Positions 35,001 through 38,330 of a stretch of DNA of 39,258 bases are shown in pieces. Source of the stretch: a virus (lineage: Duplodnaviria; Heunggongvirae; Uroviricota; Caudoviricetes). The notes beneath the pieces are model-generated. The model did not search any database and was not told the origin of the DNA. It was given only the letters and a program-made list of their open reading frames with translations. The translations under genes were made by a program, and so were the position numbers. Numbering within the stretch: position 1 is the stretch's first letter; each line of letters opens with the position of its first letter. The stretch lies in the IMG/VR virus record IMGVR_UViG_2519899560_000023. One strand, written 5' to 3'.

Positions 35001-35099
35001 GACGCTCTCTTTGTTGGGCCTTTACTGAATTAACGCAAAATGGCGTTTATCGGTCTGTGGATATGATAATTCAGTTTATTCAGGAACAGGCTGATTATT

Positions 35100-37139
35100 A
35101 TGACGTCCAAATGGGTTCAACTATCATCAATGCCCGGAAACTTTACTGTTAAAGTTTCCGGTGGTACAGCGGCATTTCTTGAGGCTCCCTTTCCTCCGGC
35201 CGAAACAAAAGGAGGAATGACATTTGCTGACTGTCTCATCAGTTTTAATACACGGGATTGCCTGTGGGTAAGGCCAGTATCCGGTGATCCGAGTGTGGAA
35301 ATTACCGGAGCGGGTATTGGTGCGGTCATTCCGTTAAGTGCTGATGTTGCCGGTACTGCTGAACCGTCAGACTGGGATAATGCTGAAACACATACCCGTC
35401 CGTCAGGAAATGAAACTGCTTCCAGCTCCCCTTCCTGGTATTACGTGGTGGTTCTTGCTGGTCAGTCAAACGGTATGGCTTACGGTGAAGGTCTGCCACT
35501 GCCGGAGACATATGACCGCCCCGAACCGCGTATTATGCAGTTAGCCCGTCGCAGTACAGTCACGCCGGGAGGTAAAGCCTGTCAGTATAACGACATCATT
35601 CTGGCCGACCACTGTCTGCATGATGTGCAGGATATGAGTGGAAAAAATCACCCGAAAGCGGATGTGGCTAAAGGGCAATATGGCACCGTGGGTCAGGGGC
35701 TTCACATTGCCAAAAAACTGCTGCCGTTTATTCCGGCAGATGCGGGGATTCTGCTGGTTCCCTGCTGCCGTGGTGGTTCTGCATTCACGGCGGGTGCTGA
35801 CGGCACGTACAGTGACAGCACGGGTGCTTCAGAGGACTCAGCCCGCTGGGGTGTGGATAAGCCGCTGTATAAGGACTTAATCAGCCGGACAAAAGCGGCA
35901 CTGGCGAAGAACCCGAAAAACCGCCTGCTTGCTGTGGTGTGGATGCAGGGCGAGTTTGATATTGATGCGAAGCCGACGGAGCATTCCGCGCTGTTTCTGG
36001 CGATGGTGGAAAAATTCCGCGCAGACCTGGCTGAACAGGCGGAACAGTGTACCGGTGGCAGTGCTGCTGGCGTTCCGTGGATTTGTGGCGATACCACGTA
36101 TTTCTGGAAACAGAAAAATGAACCGGCATACCAGGCAATCTATGGCGGCTACAAAAACAAAACAGATAAAAACATTCATTTCGTTCCATTAATGACAGAT
36201 GAAAATGACGCGAATGTACCCACCAACAATCCGGCAGAAGACCCGGATATTGAATCCATTGGTTATTACGGCTCAACGTGGCGTAACAGTGCCGCCACCT
36301 GGACATCTGCGGACCGGGCCAGCCATTTCAGTTCATGGGCACGTCGTGGGATTATTTCCGACCGTCTGGCCACGGCAGTTCTGACTCATGCGGGGCGAAC
36401 CACAGTAAAAGCCGATGTTCCATCTTCTGAAACTGAAGCACCAGTGCCGTCACCTTCAGAAACTGAAGCAGTAACCACAACACTGCTGTCTTATCGTGTC
36501 AGTGAGTCAGAAGGAAATCTGAAAGCCCAGGGCTGGGAGCCGGCTGGCGGTAAAGCTGAAATTATCAGTGATGCAGGAGGCACAGGTGGTAAGGCAATGA
36601 AACTGACCAAGGAAACAGGTAAATCATCCTGGTATCTGGATCATGATGCCGGTACTGGTGCTGAACTGCTGAAAAATGGTGGTTTAATCAGTTGTCGTTT
36701 TAAAGTACCTGGCGACCTGGTGGCAAACCAGTATGTCATGGGGCTTTACTGGCCGGTTTCCTCTCTGCCGCAGGGTGTCACCCTGACAGGGGATGCAGGG
36801 AATAATCTGCTGGCATCGTTCTACATCCAGACAGACGCAAAAGACCTGAATGTGATGTACCACAATGCAAAAGTGGCAACAAATAACCAGAAACTGGGAA
36901 CCTTTGGTGCATTTGATAATGAATGGCATACGCTGGCCTTCCGTTTTGCAGGAAATAACAGCCTTCAGGTTATTCCGGTTATTGATGGTCAGGATGGTGC
37001 CGCGTTTACCCTGACGCAGTCACCAGTAGGAACTTTCCCGGTGGACAAACTCCGCGTAACGGATATCACAAAAAATGCAACTTACCCGGTGCTGATTGAC
37101 AGCATTGTGGTGGAAGTGAAAAAAGCGGTAACAGAATAA
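35100..37139 (+). CDS. SGNH/SASA-family carbohydrate O-acetylesterase-like protein (NanS-p-like) with N- and C-terminal extra domains
   Basis: 679 aa; VVLAGQSNGMAYGEG block, then LLVPCCRGGSAF and VVWMQGEFD blocks and DRASHFS; C-terminal about 230 aa beta-rich. Confidence 0.6.
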   Translation: MTSKWVQLSSMPGNFTVKVSGGTAAFLEAPFPPAETKGGMTFADCLISFNTRDCLWVRPVSGDPSVEITGAGIGAVIPLSADVAGTAEPSDWDNAETHTRPSGNETASSSPSWYYVVVLAGQSNGMAYGEGLPLPETYDRPEPRIMQLARRSTVTPGGKACQYNDIILADHCLHDVQDMSGKNHPKADVAKGQYGTVGQGLHIAKKLLPFIPADAGILLVPCCRGGSAFTAGADGTYSDSTGASEDSARWGVDKPLYKDLISRTKAALAKNPKNRLLAVVWMQGEFDIDAKPTEHSALFLAMVEKFRADLAEQAEQCTGGSAAGVPWICGDTTYFWKQKNEPAYQAIYGGYKNKTDKNIHFVPLMTDENDANVPTNNPAEDPDIESIGYYGSTWRNSAATWTSADRASHFSSWARRGIISDRLATAVLTHAGRTTVKADVPSSETEAPVPSPSETEAVTTTLLSYRVSESEGNLKAQGWEPAGGKAEIISDAGGTGGKAMKLTKETGKSSWYLDHDAGTGAELLKNGGLISCRFKVPGDLVANQYVMGLYWPVSSLPQGVTLTGDAGNNLLASFYIQTDAKDLNVMYHNAKVATNNQKLGTFGAFDNEWHTLAFRFAGNNSLQVIPVIDGQDGAAFTLTQSPVGTFPVDKLRVTDITKNATYPVLIDSIVVEVKKAVTE

Positions 37140-37144
37140 AAAAA

Positions 37145-37173
37145 TCCCGCCGGTCATGATATGGCTGGCGGGA
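37145..37173 (-). terminator. hairpin followed by T-run on minus strand
   Basis: Stem TCCCGCC/GGCGGGA with about 15-nt loop; minus strand continues ATTTTTTTATT. Confidence 0.4.
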
Positions 37174-37188
37174 GCTACCTAACCCATA

Positions 37189-37218
37189 AAGGAAAATAAA
37201 AATACTCCCGAAGGAGTG
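37189..37218 (-). terminator. hairpin with tetraloop and T-run on minus strand
   Basis: Minus strand ACTCC-TTCG-GGAGT followed by ATTTTTATTTTCC. Confidence 0.45.
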
Positions 37219-37285
37219 GTTATCAGTCGCTTCGATGTTTTTACCCGATAACGAATTATGTAGTCAATATCAAAGGTAAGGTTAT

Positions 37286-37468
37286 ATGACATTCGTTCAT
37301 ACAATGCTGCTTTATTTCTGCGCTGTGGTCAGTGCGTTATATCTGGTGAGCGGTGGTTATAAGGTCATCAGAAATTATATTCGCCGTAAAATTGATGATG
37401 CGGCAGCTGAAAAACTCAGTAAAACAGCACAGGCACCGTCATCCCCAAACGACCCGACCCCGCTCTGA
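37286..37468 (+). CDS. small membrane protein (one N-terminal TM helix, hydrophilic tail)
   Basis: 60 aa; MLLYFCAVVSALYLVSGG hydrophobic core; AAGGTAAGG upstream. Confidence 0.5.
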   Translation: MTFVHTMLLYFCAVVSALYLVSGGYKVIRNYIRRKIDDAAAEKLSKTAQAPSSPNDPTPL

Positions 37469-37503
37469 TAACGGGGCAATATACCTGCAAAAGGAGAATA
37501 TTC

Positions 37504-37749
37504 ATGCCAGAGATTAAAGGCACGGTTACTGAAGAGCTTGTCAAACAGGCACTTTATTCTGAAGAAGTGAACCGCGTGCTGAAGGCGCAGGTTCGCAAGG
37601 ATTTTGAGGCACAAATCGACGCATATGTTGATGAAGTGCTGGCCCGAATGGTTGGCCGTTCTCCGGCTGAAAACAGCACGGAAAATGATCCTCAACCCGT
37701 AGAGCAACCAGAGCCGGTTCAGCCCGGAACTGACGGTACTATGATGTAA
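37504..37749 (+). CDS. small acidic helical protein
   Basis: 81 aa; strong SD AAAGGAG 7 nt upstream; followed by terminator. Confidence 0.55.
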   Translation: MPEIKGTVTEELVKQALYSEEVNRVLKAQVRKDFEAQIDAYVDEVLARMVGRSPAENSTENDPQPVEQPEPVQPGTDGTMM

Positions 37750-37758
37750 CAATACCGA

Positions 37759-37790
37759 CCGGCAGGTTTCCCTGCCGGGTGAGTTTGTTA
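37759..37790 (+). terminator. rho-independent terminator after small-protein cassette
   Basis: Stem CCGGCAGG/CCTGCCGG, loop TTTC, then GTGAGTTTGTT. Confidence 0.55.
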
Positions 37791-38066
37791 ATGCACGTTT
37801 TGTGTATTTTCCCTCCTGGGAGAACAGGCAGGACATATCAGCATCCTGAAACAGGAAGCATTTTTGGGTTTGTATGTCTTGCCATTTTGAGATCGAGAAC
37901 GGCGATAGATGAGCTGTAAGGGAGTCTTACAGGCAGGGCAAACAGGCTCTTTCATCCATGATAAAGATCTCCTTTTTATGCATCTCTGCTTTACAGGAGA
38001 CCGGGGAATATCATAGGATACGCCACGAGCTCGAAGTAAAGCATTGATGCAAGTTTTTACAGATTG

Positions 38067-38105
38067 ACCCAGCATAGTTCCAGCTATGCTGGGTTTCACT
38101 TTTAT
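38067..38105 (+). terminator. rho-independent terminator upstream of com/mom control region
   Basis: Perfect 10-bp stem CCCAGCATAG/CTATGCTGGG, 6-nt loop, then TTTCACTTTTATG. Confidence 0.65.
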
Positions 38106-38169
38106 GTAGTATCCTGTTGATTTGAAACATACTACATATACGCGTGATCCTACCTTCACTGTATAAAAA

Positions 38170-38330
38170 GTCAATAAAATGATCATTTTATGATCGTTTT
38201 CACCACCTAACTCTTCGTTTTCTTTAAGTAAATAATCACCTCCCTGAATCATTGTTGATGACTTTTCAATCTATTTGTTGTATCAATTAAACAAATCGAA
38301 TCGATCGTTTTTGTCGATCGATTGCATGAG
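38170..38330 (+). promoter_or_regulatory. putative mom-operon promoter/control region with paired GATC sites
   Basis: GATC at 38181, 38192, 38303, 38316; 9-bp perfect inverted repeat AATCGATCG/CGATCGATT at 38299-38323; AT-rich. Confidence 0.5.

Follow-up and report, generated by a model that had tools for sequence, protein, structure and literature searches.

A NanS-p-like esterase module with an unrelated N-terminal domain between gin and com/mom of the Mu-like prophage Sp18

The DNA analyzed here (the window, 39,258 nucleotides; IMG/VR virus record IMGVR_UViG_2519899560_000023) contains the Mu-like prophage Sp18, and this study concerns the genes that lie between its gin and com/mom genes, above all the predicted esterase ECs4993. 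All positions are those of the window. Positions 34400–39258 are 100% identical to many chromosomes of O157:H7, O26 and other Escherichia coli strains that produce Shiga toxin (STEC). These include positions 5074738–5079596 of E. coli O157:H7 Sakai (NC_002695.2), which fall within the annotated "prophage Sp18, Mu-like phage". In Sakai, Sp18 extends from 5040971 to 5079729 (38,759 bp) and interrupts sorM, and the genes of the interval are annotated as ECs_4992 (gin) to ECs_4998 (mom). Sp18 is predicted to be intact and is described as spontaneously inducible, with DNA that is packaged efficiently (PMC2669165).

Between the end of gin, whose stop is at 35000, and the start of com, at 38367, lie 3,366 bp. 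In Mu the equivalent gap measures 94 bp; D108, SfMu and the Yersinia phage vB_YpM_Tongde each have 82 bp there. When the region is aligned with the gin-com stretch of Mu, gin has about 72% mean column identity, the homology fades at the end of the gene, and it restarts at com, with a GATC-rich region just 5' of com. Sp18 Mom is 79.5% identical to Mu Mom, and identities to the Mom proteins of Mu, D108 and SfMu are 77–80%. A first-pass annotation, made from the letters alone, had described about 3.3 kb of cargo between gin and com/mom where Mu is nearly empty, made up of a 2-kb esterase gene, two small protein genes, terminators in both orientations and AT-rich non-coding DNA. Each of these elements is found in the interval. 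The list of genes was right for the three on the plus strand and omitted ECs4996, an open reading frame (ORF) annotated on the minus strand. The features are listed below; aa denotes amino acids, dG the folding free energy, z the z score of a fold, and pLDDT the predicted local distance difference test score.

34440–35000, plus strand: gin (ECs4992), left flank; Pfam Resolvase and HTH_7
35001–35099, plus strand: spacer of 99 bp between gin and the esterase gene, 39% GC
35100–37139, plus strand: esterase gene ECs4993, 679 aa, predicted NanS-p-like sialate O-acetylesterase; Pfam SASA and DUF6645
35100–35333, plus strand: N-terminal domain of the esterase, aa 1–78; no Pfam match
35334–35408, plus strand: linker, aa 79–103, low-confidence, breakpoint zone; pLDDT <50 at residues 80–110
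35409–36383, plus strand: NanS-type SGNH/SASA catalytic domain, aa 104–428; PDB 3PT5, Pfam SASA
36384–36473, plus strand: Pro/Ser/Thr/Glu-rich interdomain linker, aa 429–458, second breakpoint zone; identity among relatives 17–100%
36474–37139, plus strand: lectin-like C-terminal domain DUF6645, aa 459–679 and stop; PDB 6YP6, Pfam DUF6645
37145–37173, strand not assigned: GC-rich hairpin just 3' of the esterase stop; dG -23.2 kcal/mol, z -4.9 on the plus strand
37204–37217, minus strand: short hairpin resembling a terminator, its T-run on the minus strand; consensus scan, weak evidence, extended folds not significantly stable
37286–37468, plus strand: ECs4994, 60 aa, DUF1378, hydrophobic N-terminus; Pfam E 1.2e-38, phrog_494
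37504–37749, plus strand: ECs4995, 81 aa, DUF826; Pfam E 2.8e-15, phrog_311
37759–37778, strand not assigned: 8-bp GC hairpin between convergent ORFs, right boundary of the lambdoid-type module; on either strand dG about -22 kcal/mol, z -3.6/-3.7
37788–38252, minus strand: ECs4996, annotated ORF of 154 aa in the hypervariable segment 37779–38257; phrog_26524 over aa 1–104, coding status doubtful
38066–38095, plus strand: hairpin with a perfect 13-bp stem, inside ECs4996, its T-rich tail on the plus strand; dG -21.5 kcal/mol, z -5.2
38258–38366, plus strand: conserved com/mom upstream region; homology to the M1/JKHS016 types at 94–95%
38367–38567, plus strand: com; Pfam Zn_ribbon_Com, Sakai ECs_4997
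38521–39258, plus strand: mom; Pfam Mom, Sakai ECs_4998

The catalytic domain of ECs4993 matches NanS (YjhS; PDB 3PT5) with E 1.9e-118 over residues 104–428, and the Pfam SASA match has E 6.5e-12. The blocks GQSN (121–124), MQGE (282–285) and RASH (406–409) are all kept. The C-terminal domain matches the NanS-p C-domain of PDB 6YP6 with E 1e-111 over residues 459–674, and Pfam DUF6645 with E 2.4e-69. Y545, Y550, Y575 and F646 align to Y510, Y515, Y540 and F611, the four aromatic residues of the phi24B enzyme that are proposed to bind carbohydrate; the catalytic blocks, block IV in its forms RASH and RSSH, and the sugar-binding aromatic residues have been described for NanS-p (PMC10462455). Of the features by which NanS-p enzymes are recognized, ECs4993 thus has the catalytic blocks and the DUF6645 domain with its aromatic residues, and it lacks DUF1737 and the position in a lambdoid late region. 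No signal peptide is visible. The enzyme would be expected to de-O-acetylate 5-N-acetyl-9-O-acetylneuraminic acid (Neu5,9Ac2) and the 9-O-acetylated sialic acids of mucin. A single-sequence AlphaFold2 prediction of the whole esterase had a mean pLDDT of 33.7 and was unusable.

The two small genes behind the esterase tie the block to lambdoid phages. Phage 1720a-02 carries nanS-p (648 aa), then ORFs of 60 and 81 aa, then the holin gene S, and the products of the first three are 81%, 54% and 47% identical to ECs4993, ECs4994 and ECs4995. The order, orientation and sizes of the Sp18 trio (679, 60 and 81 aa) fit the lambdoid block nanS-p-DUF1378-DUF826 between stx and the holin gene, and DUF826 and DUF1378 ORFs are known to sit between nanS-p and S in lambdoid phages (PMC10462455). 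At the DNA level, positions 35438–37128 are 77–81% identical to nanS-p of about 300 Shiga toxin (Stx)-converting and other lambdoid phages. The hairpin at 37145–37173 has an A-run before it on the plus strand, hence a T-run on the minus strand, and an A-run with a GC hairpin after the esterase stop is common to Sp18 and the nanS-p of 1720a-02. No holin gene follows the Sp18 esterase. The shared synteny and the shared A-run and hairpin suggest that in its three plus-strand genes Sp18 has a copy of the lambdoid stx-flanking module that is cut on the right, immediately before the holin gene. Since the module is far more widespread in lambdoid prophages, we infer that the transfer ran from a lambdoid to a Mu-like phage.

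The N-terminus departs from this pattern. Pfam gave no DUF1737 match in ECs4993 at E up to 0.01, and the first ~100 residues are unrelated to the DUF1737 N-termini of the NanS-p of phages 1717 and 1720a-02 (apparent identity 25–27%, in columns with gaps). HMMER, run exhaustively with this domain over 1.84 billion representative proteins, returned only five relatives. Four are fragments of the same kind of esterase, one of them from Salmonella at 29% identity, and the remaining one, a repeat protein of 1,445 aa in which about 50 residues match, is of doubtful relevance. Word-indexed protein searches with the domain returned only fragments of the same esterases. Given a shallow alignment of seven rows, with only three distinct types of sequence among them, AlphaFold2 models residues 1–78 as a compact all-beta domain, with pLDDT 75–89 and a predicted template modelling score (pTM) of 0.59, followed by a low-confidence linker; the linker, aa 79–103, is probably disordered, judging from the model. 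Fold searches with the model found weak similarity to small cupin-like barrels and to many uncharacterized phage proteins of about 90 aa, and the match to phrog_4772 is marginal (E 0.006). The predicted fold is uninformative on function. These comparisons indicate that the lambdoid DUF1737 has given way to an unrelated domain, rich in beta structure and about 78 aa long, that has been seen only in Mu-like prophages.

The module is present in every relative examined. Loci were found through the N-domain of the esterase, and it lies in a Mu-like context in 34/34 IMG/VR contigs and 17/17 metagenome contigs, 51/51 in all. DUF1378 and DUF826 stand behind it wherever a contig reaches that far. Contigs that are long enough have Mu-type baseplate or tail-fibre genes or gin upstream, and com with mom or with a methyltransferase-like ORF downstream. 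The same architecture is found in E. coli M1, in JKHS016 and at loci L009–L012, at differing chromosomal sites, as expected of a transposable phage. Among 5,426 complete E. coli genomes, a probe for Sp18-type com/mom found 284 places in 232 genomes. The N-domain probes found 245 places in 204 genomes (Sp18-type) and 39 places in 28 genomes (M1-type), again 284 places and 232 genomes; the two censuses were compared by their totals alone. In a Salmonella enterica Mu-like prophage, gin is followed by two small ORFs and then by an esterase whose N-domain belongs to the same family; the contig ends inside the esterase gene. The extra ORFs in this prophage (L034, 9426–9910) encode 58 aa, with a hydrophobic C-terminus, and 87 aa, so that the Salmonella slot holds additional cargo.

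Outside this group, the esterase is absent from 21/21 Mom-encoding loci of other species (Edwardsiella, Pantoea, Apirhabdus, Yersinia and others). At the non-E. coli loci in which the upstream gene is recognizable (L013, L014, L016, L026 and L028), gin or a tail-fibre-assembly gene lies about 120–280 bp from com/mom. Presence in every relative examined, together with absence from these other loci, argues that the block is a derived yet fixed feature of one enterobacterial Mu-like phage lineage. The N-domains of the Sp18 and M1 types are about 59% identical, and those of Sp18 and Salmonella 29%, divergences which suggest that the association of the esterase with Mu-like phages is old.

Several side observations concern these relatives. 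Sp18-like phages are inserted in Stx2c- and Stx1a-converting prophages (LC727881.1 and LC727895.1), with an annotated 4-bp target duplication, and two esterase-carrying phage types are there in direct physical contact. In some Sp18-like phages com is followed, in place of mom, by a 350-aa ORF resembling C5 cytosine DNA methyltransferases (L001, 10126–11178, in LC727895.1; L036, L041 and L069–L071). This ORF is annotated as a methyltransferase in one complete genome (H112). The DNA-modification gene would here have been exchanged and the com before it retained. The M1-type prophage L007 is without gin, and the tail-fibre-assembly gene occurs in either orientation among relatives (e.g., L042, L045, L046 and L069). 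D108 has its own lineage-specific gene after mom (L086, 2698–3144), not between gin and com, which suggests that Mu relatives use different right-end slots for cargo.

The flanks of the cassette are 90–100% identical among relatives; the cassette is not. Amino acid identities to the Sp18 esterase differ by domain, as follows.

L036: N-domain 100%, catalytic domain 98%, C-terminal domain 86%
L043 and L044: N-domain 97–98%, catalytic domain 69%, C-terminal domain 40%
M1/JKHS016 type: N-domain 58–59%, catalytic domain 69%, C-terminal domain 72%
Lambdoid phage 1720a-02: N-domain unrelated, catalytic domain 81%, C-terminal domain 82%

Synonymous divergence (dS) changes in the same steps. Against L044 and L046 it is 0.11 in the N-domain and exceeds 2 in the catalytic domain; the comparison with L036 gives 0.055 for the catalytic domain and 0.47 for the C-domain. 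DUF1378 and DUF826 likewise fall into several allele classes, which are combined differently among relatives. The alleles are thus, to judge from these comparisons, mosaic, with breakpoints at the interdomain linkers. For the catalytic and C-terminal domains, lambdoid alleles are nearer to Sp18 than are the alleles of Mu-like relatives with the Sp18 N-domain, and a lambdoid-like core on a Mu-like N-domain points to domain-level exchange across phage families. With the best non-Mu allele only about 81% identical in DNA, the exchange would not be recent; on the same ground, a recent event of gene conversion by a resident lambdoid nanS-p was rejected. The divergent core of the L043 esterase was also considered as a lambdoid allele and has no close phage match. 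The ratio of nonsynonymous to synonymous divergence (dN/dS) is 0.05–0.2 in all esterase domains, and 0.05–0.17, from small counts, in the N-domain. By this measure the esterase is under purifying selection, and the N-domain alone appears to be so as well.

The last 0.5 kb before com differs in kind. Homology between Sp18 and the M1/JKHS016 type ends at 37778 and restarts at 38258 at 94–95%; between those points the M1/JKHS016 type has unrelated DNA with an 86-aa ORF without a family match. Homologues of ECs4996 occur only in E. coli Mu-like prophages. A 1-nt indel separates the fused 154-aa Sakai form from relatives that have a 135-aa form and a small zinc-ribbon ORF; the ORF is split in L001, a Mu-like phage inserted in Stx phages, and in others it is interrupted by a duplication. 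The interval has an excess of terminator-like sites (12 in 34300–38700, against 4.6 +/- 2.1 in shuffles), and the hairpins at 37145–37173, 37759–37778 and 38066–38095 are stable (z -3.6 to -5.2). The T-runs lie on the minus strand at 37145–37173 and on the plus strand at 38066–38095, so that both orientations are represented. In relatives the hairpin at 38066–38095 has two other stem sequences that still pair (e.g., GGCCCAGAATAGTTCGCGCTATCTGGGTC and GGTCCAGATAGCTGTAACTATCTGGACC), and in some it lies in a tandem duplication with a period of about 80 nt. An Rfam scan of 34900–38600 gave one match, far below threshold, and left this hairpin unmatched. These features make it a candidate plus-strand terminator or insulator that separates the cargo from the mom control region, and the 0.5-kb segment around it is probably a separate hypervariable piece that serves as terminator or insulator rather than as a stable protein gene. 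Unregulated expression of mom is harmful, and Mu mom is controlled by Dam, OxyR, C and Com. The hairpin could serve as a dedicated insulator, keeping transcription of the cargo out of the toxic mom operon.

The control region itself is conserved. A palindrome, AATCGATCG-N7-CGATCGATT, with two GATC sites lies at 38299–38323, 5' of com, and is kept in Sp18- and M1-type prophages. Mu has clustered GATC sites, under Dam/OxyR control, at the equivalent place. At the other end of the cargo, a terminator scan found no terminator-like site in the 99-bp spacer between gin and the esterase gene, and read-through from gin may therefore occur.

In base composition the interval stands apart from the morphogenetic genes. 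It has 48.0% GC, with 47% GC at third codon positions (GC3) in the esterase gene, against 57.2% GC and 61% GC3 in the late morphogenetic genes, the comparison that the first-pass annotation had proposed. The intergenic pieces have 37–41% GC, the 38-bp hairpin spacer excepted. The G segment, gin, com and mom are likewise low (47–50% GC), so that composition sets the cargo apart from the head and tail genes and not from adjacent genes; it was rejected as a marker of the boundaries of the insert. The invertible region of Sp18 has inverted arms of 182 nt (78% complementary) at 32993–33174 and 34196–34377, around a segment of about 1.4 kb. The Mu G segment is about 3.06 kb and the Mu genome 36,717 bp; Sp18 is about 2 kb longer, its shorter invertible segment offsetting part of the 3.4 kb of cargo. 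From the Sakai coordinates, window positions ~1–632 are host DNA left of Sp18. The window ends at the mom stop codon, and the annotated right end of the prophage is 133 bp further on.

We consider the cargo to be a lineage-fixed accessory esterase module that came from a lambdoid (Stx-type) late region, settled in the space separating gin from the mom control region, and has persisted there since; we put the probability of this reading at about 0.65. An ancestor of the Sp18-like E. coli Mu-like phages would have taken the nanS-p-DUF1378-DUF826 module from a lambdoid late region. DUF1737 would have been exchanged for the ~78-aa domain specific to Mu-like phages, with the catalytic and C-terminal domains still being swapped at the linkers. 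The esterase may be produced in cells in which Sp18 grows lytically, or at a low level via read-through from gin. The lack of a visible signal peptide suggests that it would leave the cell at phage lysis. It would strip 9-O-acetyl groups from the sialic acids of mucin and so yield N-acetylneuraminic acid (Neu5Ac) for surviving lysogens. NanS-p enzymes of lambdoid prophages are active esterases that act on mucin glycans, and their lysogens grow on Neu5,9Ac2 (reviewed in PMC8065619). For ECs4993 itself we infer the enzyme activity, expression timing, release and host benefit.

A number of points weigh against this reading. No promoter could be assigned, sigma-70-like matches being at chance level; the Mu C-box TTAT-N6-ATAA was not found anywhere in the window; and no motifs were found that the upstream regions of the esterase gene and com share with other late intergenic regions. 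On the donor side, the closest lambdoid esterase allele has only the ~81% DNA identity given above, and the DNA-level relatives of the DUF1378/DUF826 segment in sequenced phages all belong to the same Mu-like element. O157 strains already have several lambdoid nanS-p genes, the Sakai chromosome showing 5 matching places, and the gain from a further copy is questionable. The esterase is broken in a few relatives: it is truncated at 523 aa in L038, and tblastn matches are split in L050, L062 and L082. These frameshifted or truncated ORFs suggest occasional pseudogenization and a dispensable gene. In the searchable literature, subscription papers such as Rangel et al. 2016 aside, no paper was found that names ECs4993–4996, nor one that ties nanS-p to Sp18 or to Mu-like phages.

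The broken copies could also be taken to mean that the cargo is a decaying passenger without function in a slot that tolerates insertions. The frameshifts and splits of ECs4996 fit this, and Sp18, about 2 kb longer than Mu and probably near the headful limit of Mu, would bear such cargo as a cost. We think it very improbable, as the esterase ORF is full-length in the large majority of relatives, the residues for catalysis and sugar binding are retained, every domain has a dN/dS well below 1, and Mu-like phages of E. coli and Salmonella alike keep the architecture. The headful of Mu is roughly 39 kb. Given a similar head, the 38,759 bp of Sp18 would leave little slack, which argues that the cargo is kept by selection; useless DNA should go quickly under headful packaging. 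The first-pass annotation had seen the block as consistent with an acquired moron region in a permissive slot and had proposed to ask whether it varies among relatives. The block does appear foreign to the Mu backbone and accessory, and the slot is empty in Mu, D108, SfMu and the Yersinia Muvirus and without an esterase at non-E. coli Mom loci. The lower GC content (48% against 57% in late genes) and the replacement of 37779–38257 in some relatives could likewise point to a recent, sporadic acquisition whose presence differs between close relatives. That is very unlikely: the esterase is in every Sp18-like relative examined, the census totals match 1:1, and N-domain types only ~59% and 29% identical bespeak an old association. 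What varies among relatives is the allele and the segment 37779–38257, not the presence of the esterase. The same annotation had held that the same conserved block of phage-typical composition in all close relatives would speak against acquisition; the architecture is indeed largely universal among them, and the composition still differs from that of the late genes. A defence island was also considered and dropped, since no cargo protein had a match in PADLOC; NCBIfam gave none either.

A further alternative, tentative and well short of an even chance, is that the esterase is a virion protein, anchored to the Sp18 head or tail by its N-domain. It would resemble gp84, the NanS-p-type esterase of phi24B, whose DUF1737 is reported to decorate the capsid and to bind capsid hexons (preprint 10.64898/2026.04.10.717836). 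Exactly this domain, and only this one, is replaced in Sp18, and the replacement is confined to Mu-like prophages (the 51 contigs and, at 29%, the Salmonella locus). The N-domain appears to be under purifying selection and remains tied to the type of phage as the catalytic and C-terminal domains change hands. Its modelled form, a compact beta domain with a flexible linker and a weak likeness to free-standing ~90-aa phage proteins (phrog_4772), would also suit an anchor. Retention of the N-domain is, on the other hand, trivially expected if recombination depends on homology and crossovers can fall only in the shared catalytic and C-terminal parts; the gene lies after gin, outside the head and tail operons; and the model comes from the seven-row alignment with its three sequence types. 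An esterase on the particle might, for example, hold it in mucus, ease its movement through mucus, or strip O-acetyl groups from surface glycans, and such a role could be compatible with a benefit to the lysogen. That the N-domain is a virion-docking module, evolved or recruited to display a NanS-type esterase on a Mu-type particle in parallel with DUF1737, we regard as doubtful. If true, it would mean that the anchor domain is matched to the virion type and that catalytic and lectin domains circulate freely between unrelated temperate phages of one host.

Sequence and automatic annotation of these genes (as DUF6645 domain-containing protein, DUF1378 and DUF826) are already public, and NanS-p is well studied in lambdoid phages. 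What is new is a predicted NanS-p-like esterase module, with an alternative N-terminal domain, that is resident in transposable phages. NanS-p esterases have been discussed as fitness- or virulence-associated cargo of Shiga toxin phages. On the reading preferred here, that of a lineage-fixed lambdoid module, the stx-flanking module moves between phage families and has long been resident in an unrelated, Mu-like type. Sp18-like prophages add one esterase copy in the O157 and other STEC strains that carry them, and the Sp18 esterase is a natural domain-swap experiment on the purpose of the N-terminal domain. The picture of how Mu-like phages work is unchanged by the module.

Among known systems the lambdoid NanS-p modules are the most informative comparison. 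The Sp18 esterase shares with them the SGNH/SASA domain with GQSN, QGE and RASH, the DUF6645 domain with its four aromatic residues, 81–82% amino acid identity in both domains, and, downstream, the DUF1378 and DUF826 genes and the A-run with its hairpin. Unlike them it has an unrelated ~78-aa beta domain and linker in place of DUF1737, lies in a transposable Mu-like phage between gin and com/mom and not between stx and the holin gene S, and would not be under a Q-antiterminated late promoter.

Chromosomal NanS (YjhS) is a periplasmic enzyme that belongs to the nan regulon and consists of one domain, with a signal peptide. Its catalytic domain (PDB 3PT5) is homologous to aa 104–428 of ECs4993, which differs from it in the added N- and C-terminal domains and in having no visible signal peptide. 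The right ends of Mu, D108 and SfMu have orthologous gin, com and mom genes, a GATC-rich region 5' of com and an invertible tail-fibre segment to the left; they differ in the gin-com gap (82–94 bp against 3,366 bp), and the C-box of Mu was not found in the window. Morons are autonomous accessory genes with their own signals, placed between conserved genes of temperate phages. The Sp18 cargo resembles them in lying outside the conserved backbone, in its different base composition, in its flanking hairpins and in a likely benefit to the lysogen; hairpins are present, and promoter-like matches are no commoner than chance. It is unlike them in being fixed in its lineage and in consisting of three genes apparently copied from another type of phage, one of them with a domain replaced.

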